From a virus (Duplodnaviria; Heunggongvirae; Uroviricota; Caudoviricetes), in the IMG/VR virus record IMGVR_UViG_2602041644_000008, positions 1 to 37,809 of that record: a stretch of 37,809 bases of DNA; one strand, 5' to 3'. The notes below the pieces were generated by a model that ran no database searches, was not told where the DNA came from, and saw nothing but the letters and a program-made list of their open reading frames with translations. Every line of letters begins with the position of its first letter. Positions within the stretch are counted from its first letter, which is position 1. This document shows positions 2,690 through 36,225 of this stretch, piece by piece. The position numbers and the translations under genes were made by a program.

Positions 2690-3092
2690 CGTCTTTTCTC
2701 CCCGGAATTAACTCGCGTGGATTATCGGAACGGTGATAGAGCCAGATGCCAATTCGTACTGCGACGATTGCTGACACAAATGCGCCAGCAGAGAAAACAA
2801 TCCCTTTCTCGAAAGAGTCCTGCGTGATGGTAGGTATCAGGCTGGCTATGCCGATAAGAATTGATGCTGCTGGTTTGTAGAAAAGAAGTCCGCAGAGAAA
2901 ACTAAGCATCGACAAGAGTACGCGACGACGAATTGGGTACTCTACCGCAGAGGTAACAAAAATTACCGCGCCAGCCAAAGCTCCCAAAGCAACCTCAGGA
3001 GGCACTCCTGCTATCACCGCCGCCAGAGAACTCATGCTAAGCCACTGATTTAATGTTTCACTGGTTAGTTGAGCTGACATATTTTCCACCAT
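2676..3092 (-). CDS. Holin/antiholin-like multi-TM membrane protein
   Basis: 138 aa with about four TM segments and a charged C-terminal tail. Two close starts (MVENM; GGTGGA precedes the second ATG at 3080), as in dual-start holins. First gene of the lysis cassette. Confidence 0.6.
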   Translation of the reverse strand: MVENMSAQLTSETLNQWLSMSSLAAVIAGVPPEVALGALAGAVIFVTSAVEYPIRRRVLLSMLSFLCGLLFYKPAASILIGIASLIPTITQDSFEKGIVFSAGAFVSAIVAVRIGIWLYHRSDNPRELIPGRKDDGNA

Positions 3093-3301
3093 TTATATGC
3101 ATAACGACCCCCTAAATAGTAAAACATCATGCATGATAAACCATTTGTGGTTTTTTGTTACCCTGACATCGTCAATCCCCTGCCTTTGATGTCGATAATA
3201 AGGCTCGCCTTTTACATAACTCTGAACAGATTGCAGTACAGAAATGATTTAAAATATAGAGGCTTAGTTGAATTCCGCGCCATCAAATGGCGCGGTAGCA
3301 G

Positions 3302-3620: not shown

Positions 3621-5936
3621 TCATAAAATAGATTTCGTCTTTGTAACAATAATATCTACAAAATCACCTGCAGATATAGCTGATGGTACTGTATCTGCAA
3701 GAGTAATCTTTTCTGAAGAGATGTTTTGCACATCTAATAATTTATTTTCAACCCCATCCGTATATACCAATTTGACATCACTGAATGGAGGGTAATAAGT
3801 GACTGTTCCTTGGTATACATATATTTCAATGCCTGAAATTGATTTCACTACATACCTGCCCCTTACAAGATTAATTTTGAGTTCAGATAAATCGGTTTTA
3901 TAACAGGTAATTCCTGAACCAATGTTAGCCATACTAATATCAGTATCACTATAATAAGTAATTGCTTTTCCTTGTTTTAAGGTGAAGTTATCTTTGCTTT
4001 TCCTTGGCAAGGATGTGCTATTTTTGTAATATCTACCAGTTAAGCATAGCCATGAAAATGCAGTATTCGCTACATTACCACCAGAATACACAGCTAAACG
4101 AATTGCACTAACTGGAACCCCTTCATTATTAATCCTGATCTTAATGGAAGAAATGTTAGCAACAGTAGCATATCTATGGTTAGATGAATCCCATTGCATA
4201 GAAGAAGTTATTGCTTCTGTTTGTGAAGTTATGACATTCCCATCTCCATCTAATGCATACAGGTAAATGCGAAACGATGCCGTATCTGCTGAGAATGTAA
4301 ACATATCACCATTTCTTACTGGTACATCTCCAGATTCCCATAACAACCCAAAATTCCGCATAAAAGCAAACTTAGAAGAAACTAGGTGACGGATATTATA
4401 TAAACCATCTACATCTGTTTGATATGCTAATACACCAACTTCTCCATTGTTGGCACTGGATATAAATGGGGTGTTAGCATTTAAAGAAAACAATGTTACT
4501 TCATCGGATATATTTTCCTGAACATGAAATACTGCATTCCCCTTGCCATTATCAGTTACCTCTACATAAGTGTAAGGTGATGGATTGTATGGTTCATTTG
4601 TATAGTAAGGAGAACTTAACCATGAAGCCTCAATTGAGTTATTCCACGTATATTCACCAAAGTTAATTATCAACTGTTGGTTAGTTGGGGATGATGGATA
4701 TCGTTCAAAACGAAACCCGTAGAAGTAATTGTTATCACCTCTTTGAATATCAATTTTACCTGCCCCCTCCATAGTTCCACCATAAAACTTATTGTGGTTA
4801 TGATGATATGGATTATCAGCGAAAATTATATTATTCGTACGATTCAGATAAAAATAGTTTTCATTTATCCATCCGTTCTCAACTCCAAGAAAATGAATTG
4901 TATCGACCTTTTTCAGGTTAAAGGTTGAGTATGCTATTGAATAATCCGTCGATGCCACCGAAGCATTATAATTTGCATATAACTGTAAGTAGTCGCAACG
5001 CTCAATGTTTATATGCTGCCCTTTTGCCCCGATAATACGAATATCCGGTGTCGTTTCAGATGAAATACCAGAATTTCTGATAATCGTTCCGAAGTTTTGT
5101 CTTGGGTTGTTAGGGTTTGATGCATTCCCGCCAAGCAATACCCCTATTCCTGAGTGGGATATGGTAAAAACAGCATTGGTCATTTCGAGGCTGACATTAC
5201 GAAGATTTAATGTCTCCGTAATAATAAAATTACCTTCCGCTCGTAATGTTCTGGATGATTCTCGTGCATATTCTGCAGCCAGGATCAATGCAGATGTATC
5301 ATCTGTTATACCATCGCCTTTTGCCCCAAAATCGCAAACACTAACGGTGTCTCTCATCTTATCCTGGAACGTTCGGTATACTGCTCCAGAACCATACTGA
5401 ATAAACCAACCAAAACCACCAACAACCCCGGCGATTGCAGCATCGACATAATTACGCATTGAGCGATTATTTACAGCGTCCTGCTCAAGTGATGGATCTG
5501 CAAGGTTAGAAATTTTGTTTTGCTTTGCATCGTAATATTTTGCAAGCAAAGATGGTTTCATCAATGCACGTCTGAACCACCCAAAACATTGCTGGATCAG
5601 CATCGTCAGGTAGTCAAAAGCATCTTCATGCACTTCGGGGAAAAATTTTCCCTGATTGCGAAGATCTGTCTCCTGCACTACATCAAGCACACGATCTATC
5701 GTAATTCGCCAGCCAGCAGCAAGCGGAGACGGCAGAACCACTGAACCGCCACTATAAGTGCCCGCCCCAGTTACCGTATAACCGGTATCCAGAACCAATT
5801 CTGTTACGTTCCCGTTCAGGTCAGACACCTGAACAACCAGGTCTGATTTTCTGAAAATTCGAAAAGTATACGGAAACGATGTCGTAACGCCGTTACCTGT
5901 GTATTCGTTGTGGTCAACTTCGGTTGAGACCGTCAT
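3621..5936 (-). CDS. Tailspike (conserved N-terminal particle-binding domain + pectate-lyase-like beta-helix receptor domain)
   Basis: 771 aa. The N-terminus (MTVSTEVDHNEYTGNGVTTSFPYTFRIF...) is the type I recall from epsilon15/phiV10 tailspikes. Motif VCDFGAKGDGITDDTSAL is typical of Pectate_lyase_3 beta-helix tailspikes. The C-terminal two thirds are AT-rich. Confidence 0.85.
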   Translation of the reverse strand: MTVSTEVDHNEYTGNGVTTSFPYTFRIFRKSDLVVQVSDLNGNVTELVLDTGYTVTGAGTYSGGSVVLPSPLAAGWRITIDRVLDVVQETDLRNQGKFFPEVHEDAFDYLTMLIQQCFGWFRRALMKPSLLAKYYDAKQNKISNLADPSLEQDAVNNRSMRNYVDAAIAGVVGGFGWFIQYGSGAVYRTFQDKMRDTVSVCDFGAKGDGITDDTSALILAAEYARESSRTLRAEGNFIITETLNLRNVSLEMTNAVFTISHSGIGVLLGGNASNPNNPRQNFGTIIRNSGISSETTPDIRIIGAKGQHINIERCDYLQLYANYNASVASTDYSIAYSTFNLKKVDTIHFLGVENGWINENYFYLNRTNNIIFADNPYHHNHNKFYGGTMEGAGKIDIQRGDNNYFYGFRFERYPSSPTNQQLIINFGEYTWNNSIEASWLSSPYYTNEPYNPSPYTYVEVTDNGKGNAVFHVQENISDEVTLFSLNANTPFISSANNGEVGVLAYQTDVDGLYNIRHLVSSKFAFMRNFGLLWESGDVPVRNGDMFTFSADTASFRIYLYALDGDGNVITSQTEAITSSMQWDSSNHRYATVANISSIKIRINNEGVPVSAIRLAVYSGGNVANTAFSWLCLTGRYYKNSTSLPRKSKDNFTLKQGKAITYYSDTDISMANIGSGITCYKTDLSELKINLVRGRYVVKSISGIEIYVYQGTVTYYPPFSDVKLVYTDGVENKLLDVQNISSEKITLADTVPSAISAGDFVDIIVTKTKSIL

Positions 5937-6040: not shown

Positions 6041-6055
6041 TTACCTTTCAGGTAA
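6041..6055. promoter_or_regulatory. Operator copy (exact TTACC-N5-GGTAA)
   Basis: TTACCTTTCAGGTAA, intergenic, about 50 nt upstream of the LexA box and small antirepressor gene. Preceded by TAGATA. Confidence 0.75.
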
Positions 6056-6112: not shown

Positions 6113-6132
6113 ATTGCATGGAGAAGATTAAG

Positions 6133-6390
6133 ATGCAGCAGTATCACTATCCACTGGAAGACGGATTTACCGAAAGGATTCACACGCCGGGAGGCGTCAG
6201 GTCACTGGTGGAGGGATCGCACTTGATGAAATTACTCCGGGATCTCGATAAGGATGGATTTAATGTCGATGGCCCACTTGCCGAACTGACTGCACTGATT
6301 AACTACGTCACCAGCTCACAGATGTCTATGCAGGATCTGCAAACACATCTCGACTATTGTGCCGAACAATTACGAAAACAAACCACATAA
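6133..6390 (+). CDS. Small LexA-controlled antirepressor candidate
   Basis: The track ORF starts at 6118. ATG 6133 has SD GGAG at 6121-6124 and leaves room for a transcript starting after the LexA box, giving 85 aa. The C-terminal 60 aa are homologous to the C-terminus of the Bro-N protein at 7536-8228. Confidence 0.65.
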   Translation: MQQYHYPLEDGFTERIHTPGGVRSLVEGSHLMKLLRDLDKDGFNVDGPLAELTALINYVTSSQMSMQDLQTHLDYCAEQLRKQTT

Positions 6391-6396
6391 AGAAAA

Positions 6397-6412
6397 GGCC
6401 GCTAGAGCGGCC
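6397..6412. terminator. Bidirectional terminator between convergent genes
   Basis: GGCCGCT-AGA-GCGGCC hairpin flanked by an A-run (left) and a T-rich tract (right). Lies between the stop of 6133-6390 (+) and the stop of 6412-7140 (-). Confidence 0.7.
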
Positions 6413-7140
6413 TATCGTTTCGCTTTGTGCTCGTCCCAGCACGTTTTGCACCATGCCATTAAGCCATCCGCATTTTGATTATTAGGGTAAAAGCTGGTTC
6501 GTTTTCTGCGGACATTACAAATTGGGCACCACTTCATATGGCGTGTATTCTTTGGACCATCGAGACACCTTGCACACCACTTAGTCAATCCATCTGGATT
6601 TTTTGACGATTTCCTGAATTTTTCATATGGAAGGTTTATTCTGCATCGCAAGCACTGCTTGCTACCACTTGAAACTCTGTTAGCTGATTCTTCTTTTGGC
6701 GGCGATACAGAAGGTATTCTTGCTGGCTCTGATACTGCCTGAGGTGCTTTTTTAGATGACTGAGACGATATGTCATCACCAGGGAATCGTCCATGATATG
6801 CCGGACGCGTTGACACTCCAGGTGGAAGCTCTGCTGTAAATGGCTTTGGCTGAATCAGTTGCCTCTCTTTTGCTAACTCCTGCTGTTTATAATATGTCTG
6901 GATTACCGCACTATCATAAGCAGGAGGTGCGGAAATATTAGGCGCATTACCTCCAGTTTTTTGAAACTGAGTAGAGGTGTGTTCTATCACCTGTGTACGA
7001 TTAATCGTTATCTCCCCATCTTCGGTCTTTATCGTTTTGTTATGATTAACGACCGTACGATCAGAGATCTTAGTCTTGTTCTGGTTGATAACATAAATAA
7101 TCACCGCAACCACACCAACAACTATCCAGAAAACTTCCAT
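6412..7140 (-). CDS. Membrane-anchored protein with two C-terminal CxxC...WCxxC zinc-ribbon repeats
   Basis: 242 aa. N-terminal TM helix (FWIVVGVVAVIIYVI) followed by Lys/Arg (N-out/C-in predicted). About 130 aa of low-complexity Pro/Ser/Gln linker. Two repeats: CLRCRINLPYEKFRKSSKNPDGLTKWCARC and CPICNVRRKRTSFYPNNQNADGLMAWCKTC. SD GAGGAAAAG. Confidence 0.8.
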   Translation of the reverse strand: MEVFWIVVGVVAVIIYVINQNKTKISDRTVVNHNKTIKTEDGEITINRTQVIEHTSTQFQKTGGNAPNISAPPAYDSAVIQTYYKQQELAKERQLIQPKPFTAELPPGVSTRPAYHGRFPGDDISSQSSKKAPQAVSEPARIPSVSPPKEESANRVSSGSKQCLRCRINLPYEKFRKSSKNPDGLTKWCARCLDGPKNTRHMKWCPICNVRRKRTSFYPNNQNADGLMAWCKTCWDEHKAKR

Positions 7141-7160: not shown

Positions 7161-7175
7161 TTACCTTAAAGGTAA
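7161..7175. promoter_or_regulatory. Operator copy (exact)
   Basis: TTACCTTAAAGGTAA, 20 nt upstream of the start of the minus-strand Zn-ribbon gene. On the minus strand it is preceded by AGATAT (-10-like). Confidence 0.75.
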
Positions 7176-7224: not shown

Positions 7225-7254
7225 TTGATTTTAATATTTCTTCGCGTTTATCAT
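7225..7254 (+). promoter_or_regulatory. Sigma70-like promoter for the antirepressor leader
   Basis: TTGATT-N18-TATCAT. The -35 hexamer is the right arm of an 8-bp inverted repeat AATCAACC-N6-GGTTGATT (7209-7230). The last T of the -10 is the first T of the operator at 7254. Confidence 0.5.
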
Positions 7255-7381: not shown

Positions 7382-7535
7382 ATGTGTAAAGCGCACCTAT
7401 TCTATGGTGAGCTGTGTGGGGGCACCGAAAGGTGCGCCGGGTTCCTTTGTAGCCGGTAAGACCAACTCTGCACAGTTCACCACCATCTGATTGGTCTCAG
7501 CGGTGGTGATTAACCTAACTACAAAGGTGATCGCC

Positions 7536-8228
7536 ATGAATACCAAACCTTCCATCTTTTCCTTTGAGTCATCCTGCCAGATCCGTATGTTCATGATTGA
7601 CGGAGAACCTTGGTTTGTCACCAAAGATGTGTGCAATGCTTTGAATATTGATGTTACACAAGCGAGAAAACTTGATAAAAAAGGCTGGAACAAAAAGGGG
7701 CTGTATTCAATACAGACCCCTGGTGGAATACAAGAACTATCCATCGTTTCAGAATCAGGTCTCTACATCCTTATTCTGCGTTGCAAAGAGGCAATGACAG
7801 AGGGAACGAGAGCGTTCAGATTTCTTGAATGGGTTACAGGTGAGGTTCTTCCTCAGATCCGCCGCACCGGAAGTTACATTAAAAACTCGCTCCCGCAGGA
7901 AGAACGCATAAAGATGGTTGCCGACCAGGTAGCCAACGCCACAGCATCAGCAATGATGCAGGCAATGAAGATAGAGAACAAAACCTACAGTGCCCCACTG
8001 AAGCCCGGCTACCGTAGCCTGATTCATTCTCCGTCTGGTGTTCTCGGCCTGACGGAGAACTCACTGCTGATGAATCTGCTGAACCAGTTACAGGAAGACG
8101 GGCACGATGTATCGGGCGCGGCGGCGGAGCTGACCACCATGTTCTGCTACATCGTCGGTGTGAGCAAATGCCTGCGTGATATCCAGACCCACGCGGAGTA
8201 CATCAACGACAAAGCAGGATTCTTCTGA
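7536..8228 (+). CDS. Bro-N domain antirepressor-like protein
   Basis: The track ORF starts at 7491; ATG 7536 (MNTKPSIF...) has SD AAAGGTGA, giving 230 aa. Bro-N motif FSFESSCQIRMFMIDGEPWFVTKDVCNALNI. The C-terminal 65 aa are paralogous to the small protein at 6133-6390. Confidence 0.8.
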   Translation: MNTKPSIFSFESSCQIRMFMIDGEPWFVTKDVCNALNIDVTQARKLDKKGWNKKGLYSIQTPGGIQELSIVSESGLYILILRCKEAMTEGTRAFRFLEWVTGEVLPQIRRTGSYIKNSLPQEERIKMVADQVANATASAMMQAMKIENKTYSAPLKPGYRSLIHSPSGVLGLTENSLLMNLLNQLQEDGHDVSGAAAELTTMFCYIVGVSKCLRDIQTHAEYINDKAGFF

Positions 8229-8272: not shown

Positions 8273-8301
8273 TTGCAGACCGGGGGTGAATAGCGTACTA
8301 T
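8273..8301 (+). promoter_or_regulatory. Sigma70-like promoter of the YafO-like cassette
   Basis: TTGCAG-N17-TACTAT. The last T of the -10 is the first T of the operator at 8301. Confidence 0.55.
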
Positions 8302-8315
8302 TACCTTAAAGGTAA
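8301..8315. promoter_or_regulatory. Operator copy (exact)
   Basis: TTACCTTAAAGGTAA, identical to the copy at 7161. Confidence 0.75.
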
Positions 8316-8357
8316 ACCTGTTTTTATTTTATACCTGTAACTTACCGGAGATTAAAG

Positions 8358-8684
8358 ATGACAAAACTTGGATTCGTGATGAGAGGTCCGGTAAGAAGCG
8401 GAACTCATGCAAAGCGTAGCAAGAGTCGTATTTTTACTGGTAAGGTTGTAGCACGTAAATCAGCTATTGGCTCGTTCAATAGTGAAAATGCGGCATTGCG
8501 CCATATTTTTATCAGCACAAAGCCAAGAGCATCCGCTGATGTGCATACAATGTCTATTCCTATCACAAAGAATATCAAGCGGATAAAAAAGCTCTCATCT
8601 GCAGAATCAAAAGAGATATCTTTCCGCCAGCTTAACTCATTAGAAACGCATATGAAGGAAGAGGAATTCGATGTTTTTGAGTGA
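8358..8684 (+). CDS. Basic 108-aa protein of unknown function; candidate partner/antitoxin of the downstream YafO-like protein
   Basis: SD GGAG 7 nt upstream. Lys/Arg-rich N-terminal two thirds and an acidic tail (EEEFDVFE). Its 3' end overlaps the next gene by 14 nt. I recognise no family. Confidence 0.6.
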   Translation: MTKLGFVMRGPVRSGTHAKRSKSRIFTGKVVARKSAIGSFNSENAALRHIFISTKPRASADVHTMSIPITKNIKRIKKLSSAESKEISFRQLNSLETHMKEEEFDVFE

Positions 8685-9183
8685 GTATAGCGGGAAGGTT
8701 ATACCTACTGGTGAGTTTAAAACTGATGACTTTCTGATTTCGCTAAAAGATGCTTTTAAACAACACTGGCGTCATGGTCATCATCCTGATCTGGGAAAAG
8801 ATACTCTTTTTGAAAGACCAGACGAAGTATTAGGCTTCCATCTCAGAAAGGTTCATGTCAATATTGGTGAATATGCATCATATTCATACTCATGTACTGA
8901 ACAGTGTTGGGATGAGTGGTCATATGGATTGATTGATGAACAAGGAAATTACAGGCCAAAACCAACCAGTAACGCATATCTCATATATGCAGTCAATGAA
9001 ATAAGAGATGCAGCCTTACTAGCTTATTGGGACCCGCCCGCACACACCAAAGCTAACGCAAAAGTTTGGATGGATTCCGTATTGAATTTCACAAAATTAT
9101 TTCATGAACGAACTAATACAGCTCCACTTAGTAGAAATGTTTATCCGTGGGATTATTCGTACAAATCCAAAAAGCCTGCATAG
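8671..9183 (+). CDS. YafO-family toxin-like protein (putative ribosome-dependent mRNA interferase) with an insertion
   Basis: 170 aa. GKDTLFERP...LRKVHVNIG and TSNAYLIYAVNEIRDAALLAYWDPPAHTKA parallel the YafO blocks FGRDALY...VAHIHL and SHLVYC...YLLIAVISPDAH, as I remember them. An extra Cys/Trp-rich segment (YSYSCTEQCWDEWSYGLIDEQGNY) lies between the blocks. Confidence 0.55.
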   Translation: MFLSEYSGKVIPTGEFKTDDFLISLKDAFKQHWRHGHHPDLGKDTLFERPDEVLGFHLRKVHVNIGEYASYSYSCTEQCWDEWSYGLIDEQGNYRPKPTSNAYLIYAVNEIRDAALLAYWDPPAHTKANAKVWMDSVLNFTKLFHERTNTAPLSRNVYPWDYSYKSKKPA

Positions 9184-9264
9184 TAGTTTTTTATGGACGA
9201 AACAAAAGTCAGTGCTACACTCATTGACGCCACATTGAGGTGGCTTATAGATGGAAATTTCACA

Positions 9265-9426
9265 ATGAAAAAAGCATTTGCTGCACTGTTCGTTTTGTTG
9301 TCTCTGGTAGCTTCAACTCAGGCCTTTGCCGGTCGTTGTCAGCACGACAGCGATACTGCCGCTGACGGCTCCCGCTGCGGTGGGCGTTCTGCGGATTCCC
9401 GCCCGGGCGGCGGTGGCATTCGTTAA
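9265..9426 (+). CDS. Secreted mini-protein (53-aa precursor, about 31-aa mature, 2 Cys, Gly/Arg/Asp-rich)
   Basis: The internal Met of track ORF 9193..9426 gives a canonical signal peptide MKKAFAALFVLLSLVASTQAFA|GRCQHDSDTAADGSRCGGRSADSRPGGGGIR. The SD is weak and the start is uncertain. Confidence 0.45.
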   Translation: MKKAFAALFVLLSLVASTQAFAGRCQHDSDTAADGSRCGGRSADSRPGGGGIR

Positions 9427-9432
9427 AAACAA

Positions 9433-9448
9433 GGCCGCGAAAGCGGCC
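9433..9448. terminator. Bidirectional terminator between convergent genes
   Basis: GGCCGC-GAAA-GCGGCC (GNRA loop), with an A-run on the left and TGTTTG on the right. Confidence 0.7.
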
Positions 9449-9455
9449 TGTTTGA

Positions 9456-10307
9456 TCACTGTGCAGTTTTCGCTGATCGATTTTCAGCTCTAAATTCAAG
9501 AACCGTTTCAATATTTCTTTCCTTCAGCATATCAATAACATTTTTATTCACTTGACTATCACTGGTTAATAACTGGTAAACGTTGCTTCTCTCTTTATCA
9601 GAGTTTTCTTTAACAGCTGCTTTGCATGCCAAATGCTTATTGAAATTTTCTACATCGCTAGTACAGGAATTTACGGCTGCTGATGAAATATCAGACGCTG
9701 AAGAAACACCATCATCCAAACGTTTTATAGCATTTTCTATACATGAGTTAAGGGAATAAACGACAACTGAGCGATACCCTTCAGACGCACACCATTCTAA
9801 ATTTCTTGAAGGATCGAGTGGTTTTACTTCGCTGGATTGAATTAACTTGTCAAAAACTGACTTATATTCAATCTGTTTTTTATCTATAGCCCATACTTCA
9901 GTAGCTGATTTATAATTCCCCGTATGCCTATTAACATCAAATCCATGTTTTATAAGCAAATCTGCCCATGAAAGATTTATTGATTCATTGTTATGAGGCC
10001 ATTTTCCTGTCAGAACCGCCCCCATAGACCCCATATATCCGCCATATGATGGTATAGCACCATGGCTCAGTAACTTCTCAGCAACCACAGGGCAATTAAT
10101 TACATAAGAGGCGTAAAGCCCATTCCATAAAGCCCCTCTATAGTAATCGCCACGATTAGGTTCTTTTAAGTCGATAGCCTTTGATAATTGTTCACACGTT
10201 TTGCATGCATCAAAGTTATCCTTATTGCATTGCAATGAACTGGCAGCTGTAGGATTTACAGAGACTATTGAAAGCACTATGCCAAAAAACAAATTTATTT
10301 TTTTCAT
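9456..10307 (-). CDS. AT-rich periplasmic protein of unknown function (possible ankyrin-like repeats)
   Basis: 283 aa with signal peptide MKKINLFFGIVLSIVSVNPTAA. Motifs EKLLSHGAIP and ADLLIKHGFDVN resemble the ankyrin LLxxGAxxN signature. Many Cys. ATG lies 2 nt after the stop of the 1129-aa gene. Confidence 0.6.
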   Translation of the reverse strand: MKKINLFFGIVLSIVSVNPTAASSLQCNKDNFDACKTCEQLSKAIDLKEPNRGDYYRGALWNGLYASYVINCPVVAEKLLSHGAIPSYGGYMGSMGAVLTGKWPHNNESINLSWADLLIKHGFDVNRHTGNYKSATEVWAIDKKQIEYKSVFDKLIQSSEVKPLDPSRNLEWCASEGYRSVVVYSLNSCIENAIKRLDDGVSSASDISSAAVNSCTSDVENFNKHLACKAAVKENSDKERSNVYQLLTSDSQVNKNVIDMLKERNIETVLEFRAENRSAKTAQ

Positions 10308-26493: not shown

Positions 26494-27969
26494 TTAAGCA
26501 TAGGGATCGTAATCTGTAATGGCCTTGCCTTGCTGGTTCTGCTGACCTGGAATTCGCAGACGCTTCGACACAGGGAAAGCAAACGTCAGCAATAGCGCAT
26601 CGCCTTTACCCGGCGAACGCCCAAGCCGCTCCTTGATATCTTCCTTCGGTTCGATAACGATTTTACCGTCCACTCGAACTTTGTACTCTGCCGCCGACAG
26701 GTCGTCCGCTGTTTCCTGGTCATCAAGCATCCCGCCCAGCCTCAGCCATGTCTTGCATGAGTTGAACATCTCCCCACGCTTGTTGAGCATCTGCGGGTCA
26801 GTAGACGCGCCACCGAACGGAACAAGTTGCCATGTGCGCCCCCAACCGTCACCGATTGACTTCAGACCGGTACCGTAACCAAAGTCGATGAACACTGCGT
26901 CAGCCTGATACAGGTCTTCAAAGTCAGCGATACGCTTCGCCATAATCAGATCGTCGGTAGTCTTGTTGCCAGTCCACAGCACCTTACTGTGTAGCCCCTG
27001 CCGCAGGTATATCACCGCGTCATCAACGCCTGAATATGCCGGGTCAACACCGATTATCACCGGAGCATGCGCCACCTGCGCAGCGGTTACCACCCGTTTC
27101 ATTGCCTCATCAGTAAGACCGGTAGGGATAAACTGCAATTCAGATGCATCAGGGAATATGCCGCGCACACGGATTTTAACGAAGTCGCTGTCTTCCCCGT
27201 AGTCATCAACCCATTTCTGCAACTGCTGTTTGTTAGTGCCTTCCACCGTCCGGCTGTCAATCTGCGCAGTTTTCCAGCGGTGTTTATATTTGCGGAAACA
27301 TTCGCGGAAACGCCCGGTGTTACGTGTAGGGTTTCCGAACGCCACCCAGATAATCTCAGTGTCTTCGTCCGTAAGCGCACCCTCAGCAACTTCCCACACC
27401 AGATCCGCAATGTTCGACGCTTCATCGAATACCACGATGATGCGTTTGCGCTCGTTGTGTAGTCCGGCGAATGCCTCAGTGTTGTGCTCAGACCAGGGTA
27501 TTGCGTCAGCCCGCCACCGCTTGTCGTGCCCAGGGTCATTGCTGTACATCGCGGTAGCGGTACAGGTAAACCAGTCTTTCGTGATAGCAAGGTTAGACCA
27601 CTTGATAATTTCCGGCCAGGTCTTCGTTCGTAGCTGGTTGTCGGTGTTAGCGGTCACCACAACCTTACAATCCTCGCAAGTGGACATGCCCCAGTTGATC
27701 AGCATTGAGATGAATGCGGATTTACCAATACCGTGACCAGAAGCGCGTGCCAGCATAAGCGGCTGATAGCGCGTCTCTGGATTCTGCAGGTGATCACGTA
27801 TCTCTCGGAACGCATCAGCCTGCCACTGACGTGGGCCGGTGGCATGTGCCAGTTCAGTCCCCTCTTCCCCCCACGGGAACGCATAGAGAGCATAGCCAAG
27901 CGGATCGTGAGTGAACCCTGCAATATCCTCGATCAACTGCTCTTCAGGAGATAACGCTGTATCTGTCAC
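26494..27969 (-). CDS. Terminase large subunit
   Basis: 491 aa. ATPase-like N-terminal half (ARASGHGIGKSAF Walker-A-like; IIVVFDEAS Walker-B-like). ATGA overlap with the small-subunit gene. Confidence 0.85.
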   Translation of the reverse strand: MTDTALSPEEQLIEDIAGFTHDPLGYALYAFPWGEEGTELAHATGPRQWQADAFREIRDHLQNPETRYQPLMLARASGHGIGKSAFISMLINWGMSTCEDCKVVVTANTDNQLRTKTWPEIIKWSNLAITKDWFTCTATAMYSNDPGHDKRWRADAIPWSEHNTEAFAGLHNERKRIIVVFDEASNIADLVWEVAEGALTDEDTEIIWVAFGNPTRNTGRFRECFRKYKHRWKTAQIDSRTVEGTNKQQLQKWVDDYGEDSDFVKIRVRGIFPDASELQFIPTGLTDEAMKRVVTAAQVAHAPVIIGVDPAYSGVDDAVIYLRQGLHSKVLWTGNKTTDDLIMAKRIADFEDLYQADAVFIDFGYGTGLKSIGDGWGRTWQLVPFGGASTDPQMLNKRGEMFNSCKTWLRLGGMLDDQETADDLSAAEYKVRVDGKIVIEPKEDIKERLGRSPGKGDALLLTFAFPVSKRLRIPGQQNQQGKAITDYDPYA

Positions 27970-28562
27970 TGATTACCATCCTGACGTTCTTTGAGTCGCT
28001 TCCTGGCTGCCGCTATGCGATCAGCAATTGTCACATTCACATTAACATCCAGGCGTTCTTTGAACGCGTTGACATCAACATGCTTACCAATCAGCTCAAG
28101 GTTCTTCACCTTGTCAGGCCATTTAATTTTTTTGAGGATTGTCTCTATCGAATCCTCGTTCATGTTCATGATGGTCGATGACAGATCAAAGCCACTAAGC
28201 GTAGTGCGCCAGATTTTCGGCCACTCACGGATTGGTTTAAGGCTCCCATCGTCGTTGAGGATGTCGATCACGTCCATCTGGTCGATCTCCACCAGGCGCA
28301 TGAGAACGTAATCAGCACTGACGCGCATTCGTTTGTTGCGCTCCTCCATCAACTCGGCAATCCGTTTTTGAATGCGTTCATCGCGCATCATGACACTGGC
28401 TTTAACTGCCGCTGTATTTGGGGAGAATCCTGCGTTAATCGCTGCCTGAGTTTGGTTTTCAGGCGTTTTGATGTATGACTGGCAATAAGCCTCCTGCATT
28501 GTTGTTAGTGGCTTAAATTGCGTTGATTTGCGTTTATAGGTTTTAGGTTCAGCAGGCATCAT
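27966..28562 (-). CDS. Terminase small subunit
   Basis: The track ORF extends to 28640, but that extension contains a terminator hairpin and two operator copies. ATG 28562/28559 (MMPAEPKTYKRK...) follows SD GGTGG. The HTH-like segment QEAYCQSYIKTPENQTQAAINAGFS is typical of Terminase_2-type small subunits. Confidence 0.75.
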   Translation of the reverse strand: MMPAEPKTYKRKSTQFKPLTTMQEAYCQSYIKTPENQTQAAINAGFSPNTAAVKASVMMRDERIQKRIAELMEERNKRMRVSADYVLMRLVEIDQMDVIDILNDDGSLKPIREWPKIWRTTLSGFDLSSTIMNMNEDSIETILKKIKWPDKVKNLELIGKHVDVNAFKERLDVNVNVTIADRIAAARKRLKERQDGNQ

Positions 28563-28576
28563 AACCACCGTGGTAA
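28562..28576. promoter_or_regulatory. Operator-like copy (1 mismatch) over the terS SD/start codon
   Basis: TAACCACCGTGGTAA, 18 bp centre-to-centre from the exact copy at 28580. Confidence 0.5.
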
Positions 28577-28579
28577 TAG

Positions 28580-28594
28580 TTACCGTTGTGGTAA
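28580..28594. promoter_or_regulatory. Operator copy (exact) in the terminase leader
   Basis: TTACCGTTGTGGTAA, about 20 nt upstream of the terS start. Confidence 0.7.
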
Positions 28595-28600
28595 TAGTAC

Positions 28601-28631
28601 CATGCAAAATAAAGCCGCCATAGTTGGCGGC
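28601..28631 (-). terminator. Rho-independent terminator in the late-operon leader
   Basis: The minus strand reads GCCGCCA-ACTA-TGGCGGC followed by TTTATTTTG. It lies between the palindrome at 28673 and terS. Confidence 0.7.
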
Positions 28632-28672
28632 AGTATTCAAAATCCATCAAATTCATCATGCATAATCTACTC

Positions 28673-28684
28673 GTGACATGTCAC
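28673..28684. repeat. 12-bp perfect palindrome GTGACATGTCAC, copy 2
   Basis: Overlaps the TGA stop of the 115-aa gene, about 40 nt upstream (minus-strand sense) of the leader terminator. Confidence 0.7.
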
Positions 28685-29028
28685 ACTATTAATTTCGTTT
28701 CATGCCAGCCTTTAGTCACCCAGCATTGCGAGTCACCATTACACGGGCATGAATTAACGGGAACTCTCTCGCCGCACTTACCGCAAAGTTTTCTGCTGAT
28801 CGATTTTATACGCCCGCGCACACGTGCATCATCCTGGCGGATCAGCAGCGCGATGTACTCGGCCATTTCATAGGGATCGCGACCAGGGCGCCGGGCGGCG
28901 CAGTTCCGCGCCAGCATTTCCTGCTCCTGCTTATCCAGCACCAGTTCAATTTTGCGCTCACCGGCGGCGGACTGCCGAGCGCGCTGCGCGGCTTTGCGTT
29001 CTGCGGGGGATTTAGCCACGAATCGCAC
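28681..29028 (-). CDS. Small basic protein with C-terminal Cys cluster; candidate late-gene regulator
   Basis: 115 aa with a GTG start. Arg/Ala-rich N-terminus (KSPAERKAAQRARQSAAGERK) and C-terminal CGKCGERVPVNSCPCNGDSQC. Last gene before the late leader. Confidence 0.55.
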   Translation of the reverse strand: MRFVAKSPAERKAAQRARQSAAGERKIELVLDKQEQEMLARNCAARRPGRDPYEMAEYIALLIRQDDARVRGRIKSISRKLCGKCGERVPVNSCPCNGDSQCWVTKGWHETKLIV

Positions 29029-35522: not shown

Positions 35523-35537
35523 TCACCTATAAGGTAA
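35523..35537. promoter_or_regulatory. Operator-like copy (1 mismatch) in the switch region
   Basis: TCACCTATAAGGTAA. Lies in the spacer of a minus-strand TTGATT...GAATAT promoter-like pair. Confidence 0.55.
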
Positions 35538-35640: not shown

Positions 35641-36225
35641 ATGAAAAGTATCCAGGACGTCCGCAGGCAAAATCTCAACGACTTGATCGACCGTGAATTC
35701 AATGGTGTTCAGACGCGGATGGCTGAAAAACTTGGAACTCAGGCAAATCTGGTAAACCGCTGGGCTCTTGGCAAGAAGGTTATCGGCGACCAGGTTGCGC
35801 GAAAAATTGAAGCTGCCGCCAATAAACCCCGTAACTGGCTTGATATCGATCGCTCGCTTTCTCAGGAAGGTTTTCAGCCTGTCGGACCAAGCGACATTGG
35901 TCAACTGGCGGCTCACAACCTGGAACGCTGGATGAGCGAAAGCCGCGACCTTTCAACGCAGGGAAAACTTCACCGCGCATCCGGCGTCGCCCAGGTAACA
36001 ATCAGCCGCCTGTTAAACAATGAGGTCAGCGTTTCCATTTCCACCCTGGAGAATGTTGCATCCGCATTTGGGCGTCACGGATATGAATTACTGATTCACC
36101 CGCACGACCCCGCGACTATCAACTATGACCGCTCGCGCTACGCATTGTTACCTGAAACAGAGAAGGCAAAGATCGAAAGTTACATTGAATTTGTCATCAA
36201 CCAGAACGAAAAAAACAAACAATAA
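35641..36225 (+). CDS. Prophage repressor candidate with two HTH domains and no S24 peptidase domain
   Basis: 194 aa. The N-terminal HTH ends in ARKIEAAANKPRNWLD (CI/C2-like). The second is XRE-type (LHRASGVAQVTISRLLNNEVSVSISTLENVASAFG). No Ser/Lys autocleavage module is recognisable. Divergent from cro; a strong terminator follows. Confidence 0.7.
   Translation: MKSIQDVRRQNLNDLIDREFNGVQTRMAEKLGTQANLVNRWALGKKVIGDQVARKIEAAANKPRNWLDIDRSLSQEGFQPVGPSDIGQLAAHNLERWMSESRDLSTQGKLHRASGVAQVTISRLLNNEVSVSISTLENVASAFGRHGYELLIHPHDPATINYDRSRYALLPETEKAKIESYIEFVINQNEKNKQ

Follow-up and report, generated by a model that had tools for sequence, protein, structure and literature searches.

We analysed a 37,809-nucleotide (nt) stretch of viral DNA, IMG/VR record IMGVR_UViG_2602041644_000008, hereafter the window, which is most of a temperate podophage or prophage genome of the epsilon15/phiV10-like (Uetakevirus-type) kind from Escherichia coli. 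It carries two overlapping genes whose products have 108 and 170 amino acids (aa). On balance we hold it probable that this pair is a repressor-gated, type II toxin–antitoxin (TA)-like moron of the phage, in which the 170-aa protein would be a toxin of the YafO branch, the 108-aa partner would neutralise it through its C-terminal tail, and the operon would be silent in the lysogen. Gene structure, homology, the predicted fold, the modularity of the partner and the conservation and register of an upstream phage operator are what the analysis shows directly.

The downstream gene encodes a predicted YafO-branch toxin

A sequence-only reading of the window had taken the 170-aa protein for a YafO-like toxin from the blocks GKDTLFERP, KVHVNIG, TSNAYLIYA and LLAYWDPPAH. 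All four were found in the open reading frame (ORF), and the claim agrees with the profile-profile match, the RelE-superfamily fold and the RefSeq name. When an alignment of 32 phage-type sequences from which YafO was excluded (A4) was compared by hhalign with 25 classical YafO sequences of 132-134 aa (A5), the match had a probability of 88% and E = 3.1e-6; its 109 columns extend over positions 15-130 of the 138 in YafO, so that the homology to bona fide YafO covers most of its length. Pfam profile PF13957 (YafO_toxin) was matched at E<0.01 by 12 of 13 aligned family members, and precomputed matches to it are present on some orthologs and sister proteins. By these comparisons the 170-aa protein is a divergent homolog of YafO. 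The identification is correct but not new, because 'type II toxin-antitoxin system YafO family toxin' is already the RefSeq/PGAP name of this very protein and of its orthologs with 66-82% identity; the upstream gene is labelled 'hypothetical protein'. Among 5,426 complete E. coli genomes, 69 carry the cassette, and neither protein had a meaningful match in PADLOC or NCBIfam.

Compared with classical YafO, residues ~64-102 are an insertion, in which W80 and W83 are conserved and which is the main source of the extra length of the phage protein. The sequence-only reading had called it Cys/Trp-rich; it indeed lacks an E. coli YafO counterpart, but with only two Cys and two Trp that wording was somewhat generous. 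Joint alignment of 63 sequences showed F29 and Y106 to be invariant and G36, P39, G42, D44, H62, T99, S100, L104, A124, H125 and F144 to be nearly so, the polar residues D44, H62, T99/S100, Y106 and H125 being nearly invariant in both the phage and the classical YafO families. D44, H62, Y106 and H125 are plausible candidates for catalytic residues; to our knowledge none has been defined experimentally in YafO. The 170-aa protein most likely cleaves mRNA and blocks translation.

An AlphaFold2 (AF2) model built on the 63-sequence alignment reached a predicted local distance difference test score (pLDDT) of 92.3 and a predicted template modelling score (pTM) of 0.87, with the insertion confidently placed and a helix at residues 77-83. 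A first run on 17 close homologs, with a pLDDT of 54, was discarded. The model has the RelE-like alpha/beta fold of the RelE/ParE (BECR-fold) superfamily, and PDB sequence searches turned up no solved YafO-family structure. Published work places PF13957 with the BECR-fold RelE/ParE families whose antitoxin gene precedes the toxin gene (PMC11980606), a placement with which both the fold and the gene order found here agree; the ribosome dependence of YafO is disputed (PMC11980606). Together, these results place the toxin, as a divergent member, in the YafO branch of the RelE/ParE (BECR-fold) toxins.

The upstream gene encodes a basic partner with a conserved acidic tail

The 108-aa and 170-aa ORFs lie on the same strand and overlap by 14 nt, as had been read from the sequence, and are preceded by Shine-Dalgarno-like motifs (GGAG at 8347-8350 and GAGGA at 8661-8665, respectively). 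The partner was likewise rightly described as strongly basic with an acidic tail: its isoelectric point (pI) is 10.6 overall, residues 1-80 having a pI of 12.0 and a net charge of +16 and residues 81-108 a pI of 4.5 and a net charge of -5. Searches of the partner against Pfam, NCBIfam, PADLOC and the PDB, a PDB profile search included, gave no match beyond a weak, noise-level one to ribosomal protein L18 (E = 0.21), and the only PHROG match was PHROG 5933, of unknown function. With the family profile, HMMER returned 12 relatives, all of 89-116 aa, from 1.84 billion representative proteins, and no link to known families. In this family the ends are conserved (N-terminus MTKLGFVMRG.V..R..KRRK.R, C-terminus IS...S.ELSFRMLNSLEDRMKEEEFDVFE) and the middle is not.

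Similarity to YafN was sought in three ways: BLAST gave no alignment, a shuffle test gave z = 1.2, and the partner tails, compared by hhalign with an alignment of 33 YafN sequences, scored E = 0.085-0.9. A YafN-like tail seen by eye (EISFRQLNSLETHMKEEEFDVFE in the partner and EITRRAEQYLNDMTDDDFNDFKE in YafN) was rejected on the same shuffle and hhalign values. The partner is accordingly not a cognate antitoxin of the YafN (Phd/YefM) type, and the sequence-only statement that it resembles neither YafN/Phd nor ribbon-helix-helix (RHH) nor AbrB antitoxins holds in all of these searches. The partner also shows no antitoxin DNA-binding domain that would point to autoregulation; the sole palindrome in the promoter is the phage repressor operator. 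Its basic N-terminal part may hold a novel DNA-binding fold.

For comparison we collected 8 loci (L004-L011) by exact-protein look-ups and 80 IMG/VR loci by the toxin profile, the latter nearly all on contigs of ~40 kb or fragments of these. A small co-directional partner gene was found 5' of every YafO-like gene in these ~90 related phage loci. Toxins of the 170-aa clade have partners of 104-120 aa (type A) and those of 167-171 aa have partners of 113-175 aa (type B1), both with a 14-nt overlap; the 168-aa clade has partners of 139-175 aa (types B2 and B3) with an 11-nt overlap, the 181-aa clade a 59-aa partner (type C) with a 26-nt overlap, and the 151-175-aa clade a 62-aa partner (type D) separated by a 2-nt gap. 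The 14-nt overlap is kept in all type-A loci, including Salmonella and Serratia prophages (P0005 and P0015) and the IMG/VR loci. The two small, adjacent, co-directional genes are conserved as one operon, as in type II TA systems.

The last 40 residues of all partners align without gaps when anchored at the C-terminus, following the pattern φ-K/P-x-φ-S/T-x-x-E-x-x-x-φ-S-R/F-x-φ…E..φ….F/Y-D/E-x-x-E, and an acidic tail of ~34 residues is the sole stretch common to the partner types. In-register local hhalign of the tails linked type A to B2 (90.6% probability, E = 1.3e-6), to B1 (E = 4.9e-5) and to B3 (E = 1.4e-4), and B2 to B3 (98%); the type C tail was marginal (E of ~0.01 against B1-B3 and 0.83 against type A). 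Loci L039 and L045 share 97% identity in the toxin, 100% in the tail and 24% in the N-terminal part, and for L035 and L036 the corresponding values are 76%, 86% and 11%. The tail thus stays with its toxin clade as the N-terminal part is exchanged, which is the layout expected of a modular type II antitoxin; the partner differs from such an antitoxin in that its non-tail domain is unrecognisable and freely exchanged. On this basis we propose that the acidic tail binds the toxin and that the partner is its neutralising antitoxin.

The pair stands behind a putative promoter covered by an operator

The putative sigma-70 promoter of the pair ends in an exact operator, the two overlapping by 1 nt. 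The operator at 8301 is, as the sequence-only reading had it, an exact copy, the same 15-mer as the site at 7161. The motif TTACC-N5-GGTAA has 11 exact sites in the window, and with one mismatch allowed the sites number 16, against 0.67 expected by chance, a count reached in none of 100 shuffles. An exact or one-mismatch operator precedes the pair's first gene in all 8 look-up loci and in nearly all operator-containing IMG/VR loci, in which sites occur at a background density of 0.32 per kb; its distance from the partner start codon is ~45-75 nt in types A and C. Five IMG/VR loci have no operator at all, and hence none 5' of the cassette; we presume that these are phages of different immunity specificity. 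Across the cassettes the half-sites are conserved, and the spacer occurs in at least 12 versions. Despite divergent upstream sequences, the register of a TTGnnn-N17-TAnnAT pair to the operator is fixed (TTGCAG/TACTAT, TTGGCG/TAAGAT, TTGCAT/TAATAT, TTGCAA/TAATAT, TTGCGT/TAATAT and TTGACG/CAAAAT were seen). This kept register gives comparative support for a real, modest promoter whose -10 element and start site are covered by the operator, and the claim of an operator-controlled promoter gains from the comparison as a whole. An equivalent layout at 7225-7254 serves the Bro-N gene upstream; the promoter 5' of the cassette unit is operator-controlled as well.

Two unrelated upstream halves were seen at this junction. 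One, …ttgcagac.gggggtgaatagcgtacta, precedes the type-A cassette of the window and the type-C cassette of TL-2011b-like loci; the other, …cattggcggtgtgacgtagattcgcgtaaga, also precedes both type-A and type-C cassettes (window 8273-8315; L004, L064 and L065). Such sharing across cassette types suggests that promoter halves and cassettes recombine at the operator.

We presume that the motif is bound by the 194-aa phage repressor, on the grounds of its enrichment and of the sites that flank the repressor gene, at 35523, 35571, 36283 and 36345. By size, position and annotation alone this protein corresponds to the 194-aa phiV10p40 ('putative transcriptional repressor, two HTH motifs'; HTH, helix-turn-helix). 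TTACC-N5-GGTAA also flanks the repressor gene of phiV10, which is without the cassette. Because the operators flank the repressor gene and occur in phiV10, they belong to the phage circuit and not to the cassette; the idea that the operator is the partner's own binding site was rejected, as the motif stands at early promoters and in the cassette-less phiV10. Operator pairs 62 nt apart (start to start) were seen both in the window (33178/33240 and 36283/36345) and in phiV10 (31953/32015 and 35070/35132), a spacing that hints at cooperative binding or at promoters of a fixed architecture.

Proposed mechanism

From these data we infer that the toxin is an RNase, that the partner tail neutralises it, that the phage repressor represses the operon and that the pair has a biological role, in the following scheme. 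The low-GC two-gene cassette sits between a Bro-N antirepressor-like gene and a terminator. In the lysogen, repressor bound at 8301-8315 would keep the operon low. On infection or induction the promoter would fire, so that the pair would be expressed alongside the neighbouring operator-controlled Ant-like genes, which may help induction. Partner and toxin would then be produced by coupled translation, the acidic tail of the partner binding the YafO-like RNase, and any free toxin would cut mRNA and lower translation. The basic, fast-evolving N-terminal part is modular and exchangeable. The operon seems independent of classical antitoxin autoregulation and gated instead by the phage repressor operator over its -10/start region. 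Its role may be host shutoff, lysis commitment or competitor exclusion; the sequence-only reading had likewise expected the pair to be off in the lysogen and to fire on derepression, and had thought of host shutoff or competition.

A bolder version, which we put forward only tentatively, is that these phages carry interchangeable, repressor-gated cassettes of RelE-fold, YafO-like toxins whose neutraliser consists of a short conserved C-terminal 'plug' and swapped N-terminal modules, and that the cassettes serve as a weapon of the lytic or infection phase, in host shutoff, lysis commitment or competition between phages, and not for addiction or defence. The wiring of the operon to the prophage repressor, and not to the antitoxin, is what suggests a toxin used in the lytic or infection phase. 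The swapped N-terminal parts could then be sensor or targeting modules.

Weighing the alternatives

Several results count against a repressor-gated TA-like pair. Against PF13957, the profile that the sequence-only reading had named for the toxin, the Pfam score of the 170-aa protein (19.7 bits, E = 9.5e-4) did not reach the gathering score of 25, but hhalign against classical YafO was significant. Pairwise BLAST against E. coli K-12 YafO was not significant, and Foldseek of the toxin model found nothing significant in the PDB (best match HigB2, E = 0.73) or in BFVD. These results, like the want of experimentally defined catalytic residues, would fit a superficial resemblance to YafO in a protein unrelated to RNA cleavage, which we nonetheless judge very improbable in view of the hhalign match over nearly the whole of YafO and of the invariant His, Asp and Tyr common to both families. 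On the side of the partner, no RHH, HTH, AbrB, Phd or any other known domain was found in any type scanned, and the binding of toxin by the tail has to be read with the caution that physical linkage could contribute to their co-inheritance. A partner with no antitoxin-type domain, with its basic pI and N-terminal part and its noise-level match to L18, could be no antidote at all but a cooperating nucleic-acid- or ribosome-binding factor or chaperone of a YafO-like protein acting as an early or lytic host-takeover RNase, the more so as the operator context predicts lytic-phase expression alongside antirepressor-like genes. We regard this as improbable, because the sole conserved element of the partner is an acidic tail that co-varies with the toxin clade, as is typical of cognate neutralising segments, and because gene order and overlap are those of RelE-family modules in which the antitoxin gene comes first.

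The remaining difficulties concern repression. The sequence-only reading had called the promoter good; TTGCAG-N17-TACTAT is present as described, but with 7 of 12 sigma-70 consensus positions, and not listed by a consensus scan, 'good' overstates what its sequence offers. The hairpin between the Bro-N gene and the cassette is weak (z = -0.48), so read-through into the cassette is possible, and with a single operator there may be basal or read-through expression in the lysogen. If the antitoxin is labile, moreover, closing down the operon as lysogeny sets in would leave the toxin unopposed, which is a difficulty for strict repression that leaky repression, a stable partner or a small dose of toxin may resolve. 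The possible read-through would suit a conventional prophage type II TA, addiction or defence module that is expressed in the lysogen and acts, for example, in abortive infection against other phages or in prophage stabilisation, its operator a dampener or incidental. Such a module would have the antitoxin-first, overlapping genes, the RelE-fold toxin, and the one operator and weak but real-looking promoter found here; in its hypervariable N-terminal part the partner recalls arms-race modules, and prophage yafO-like pairs have been put forward as defence candidates (PMC9836087). We consider it unlikely, although the likeliest of the alternatives: an operator maintained over the -10 element and start site across at least 12 spacers and several cassette types argues for real repressor control, the upstream gene also stands behind operators, PADLOC gave no match, and no partner has an autoregulatory DNA-binding domain. 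The repressor-gated TA-like pair remains the reading that we prefer.

Genome setting and gene layout

The DNA around the pair matches Escherichia phages EC.W1-9, TL-2011b, phiv142-3, ZX5 and phiV10. The pair has the Bro-N/Ant-like gene on one side and ejection-protein genes, on the opposite strand, on the other, and the tailspike gene (3621..5936) lies nearby. The transcription unit probably runs from ~8302 through partner, toxin and a signal-peptide gene to the strong bidirectional terminator at 9432-9449, whose plus strand as RNA folds with -17.5 kcal/mol (z = -2.96) and is followed by GUUU (Table 1). The GC content of the cassette is 39.6%, compared to 47.8% for the window, and in phiV10 the slot is empty of the cassette and holds the Bro-N gene, a 29-aa ORF and the terminator; because of the low GC and the empty slot we take the cassette to be a moron.

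Table 1. Positions of the cassette, its predicted control elements and associated genes in the window.
Feature	Coordinates	Strand	Basis or remark
Bro-N/Ant-like gene	7491..8228		pair sits 3' of this gene
Putative sigma-70 promoter (-35 TTGCAG 8273-8278, 17-nt spacer, -10 TACTAT 8296-8301)	8273..8301	+	
Phage operator TTACCTTAAAGGTAA, palindromic half-sites	8301..8315	.	first base is the last T of the -10
108-aa partner, putative antitoxin, phrog_5933	8358..8684	+	ORF and ribosome-binding site
C-terminal partner module of ~34-35 residues, proposed toxin-binding tail, KRIKKLSSAESKEISFRQLNSLETHMKEEEFDVFE	8577..8681	+	
170-aa YafO-like toxin, phrog_1651, predicted RelE/BECR fold	8671..9183	+	
Insertion relative to classical YafO, residues ~64-102, NIGEYASYSYSCTEQCWDEWSYGLIDEQGNYRPKPTSNA	8860..8976	+	gap in YafO in alignments and hhalign
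Small signal-peptide protein, 53 aa (ATG 9265) or 77 aa (9193)	9193..9426	+	phrog_3117 and phrog_14503 matches
Bidirectional intrinsic terminator ending the transcription unit	9432..9449	.	scan (minus strand) and plus-strand RNA fold
194-aa phage repressor, presumed trans-acting factor	35641..36225	+	PHROG transcriptional regulator/repressor matches

The product of 9193..9426 is a secreted or membrane protein with a MKKAFAALFVLLSLVASTQAFA signal and a Gly/Arg-rich tail. A gene of this type adjoins differing cassettes in TL-2011b and EC.W1-9, and it is a backbone gene 3' of the cassette slot, probably co-transcribed with whichever cassette fills it. On the minus strand beyond the terminator, 9456-10307 encodes a 283-aa signal-peptide protein (GC 36.9%; phrog_6118, function unknown) with no Pfam or PADLOC match, probably a further moron beside the cassette. 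In EC.W1-9 the slot of the pair (L002 4900-5752) is filled by a 108-aa protein and a 167-aa DUF2335 membrane protein behind the operator TTACCCGATTGGTAA, which implies that the slot accepts unrelated operator-gated pairs.

A second operator-controlled accessory slot lies at 6412-7140 on the minus strand, with operators at 7161 and 7254. In the window it encodes a 242-aa protein (phrog_6762) that begins with a hydrophobic stretch and ends in Cys-rich repeats like those of endonuclease VII/Stc1; EC.W1-9 carries a type B2 YafO-like pair there instead (L002 3274..3693 and 2778..3284, minus strand). Downstream of an operator at 6041, 6118-6390 on the plus strand encodes a 90-aa protein (phrog_450, phrog_15539) that shares homology with the Bro-N/Ant-like protein of 7491..8228 in the latter's C-terminal domain. 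Two further operator-like sites 18 nt apart, TAACCACCGTGGTAA and TTACCGTTGTGGTAA, were found at 28562-28594, not far inside the start, at 28640, of the minus-strand ORF 27966..28640 and just 3' of the stop of ORF 28681..29028.

Significance and comparison with known systems

That prophages carry yafO-like genes has been noted before (PMC9836087). What is new here is the placement, by structural modelling, of the phage toxin clade next to HigB2, the definition of a so far unannotated partner family whose tail is conserved and whose N-terminal parts are swapped, and the consistent position of YafO-like cassettes behind the immunity operator. YafO is among the least understood toxins of the RelE superfamily, and the phage clade, with its confident model, defined insertion and short partner tail, is a tractable system in which to map neutralisation of the YafO type. 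If the pair is repressor-gated and expressed at the lytic switch, it would be a concrete TA module used as an offensive or timing device by a phage. The occurrence of the cassette in complete E. coli genomes, at the frequency given above, and in prophages of other Enterobacterales is reason to give the partner family an annotation name.

Among the closest known systems is E. coli YafN-YafO (dinB-yafN-yafO-yafP, PF13957), which has a toxin homologous by profile-profile comparison and, like the phage pair, antitoxin-first order. The yafNO promoter is reportedly under LexA, from work attributed to Singletary et al. in 2009; where yafNO thus has a stress-relieved repressor, the phage pair would have a phage repressor. 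YafO has 132 aa, whereas the phage toxin has 170 aa, with an insertion of ~35 residues and extra N- and C-terminal strands. YafN is of the Phd/YefM type, to which the phage partner bears no similarity by BLAST, shuffle test or hhalign, and the yafN and yafO genes are 2 nt apart, while the phage genes overlap by 14 nt and stand in a phage moron.

HigB2 of Vibrio cholerae (PDB 5mje/5ja9), HigB1, RelE, YoeB and YafQ are ribosome-dependent mRNases of the RelE superfamily with at most 14% identity to the phage toxin, and they are without its insertion at residues 64-102. HigB-type antitoxins are of the HTH type. We take HigB2 to belong to the HigB or HigB-like Pfam families. In these families the toxin gene comes first (PMC11980606).

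Sister cassettes in TL-2011b (gp45/gp44) and EC.W1-9 (WYA78249/WYA78250) have toxins of the same family, with 33% and 47% identity, respectively, and, as in the window, an upstream partner and an upstream operator. The TL-2011b pair occupies the same slot as the window pair, whereas the EC.W1-9 pair lies in a different slot on the other strand. Their partners, of 59 aa in TL-2011b and 139 aa in EC.W1-9, have unrelated N-terminal parts, and the EC.W1-9-type partner shares the C-terminal tail motif of the window partner.

In position, between the tailspike and ejection-protein genes, and in its Ant-like neighbours, the locus resembles the immI-type accessory regions under repressor control that are known from temperate podophages, with P22 ant/arc/mnt and Bro-N antirepressors as examples. 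Genes of the P22 immI type are kept off by repressor in the lysogen. Control in P22 immI is by Mnt and Arc, whereas here it would apparently be exerted through operators of the primary immunity repressor, with a repressed state expected in the lysogen, and the cargo of the window locus, compared with that of P22 immI-type regions, is a TA-like pair.

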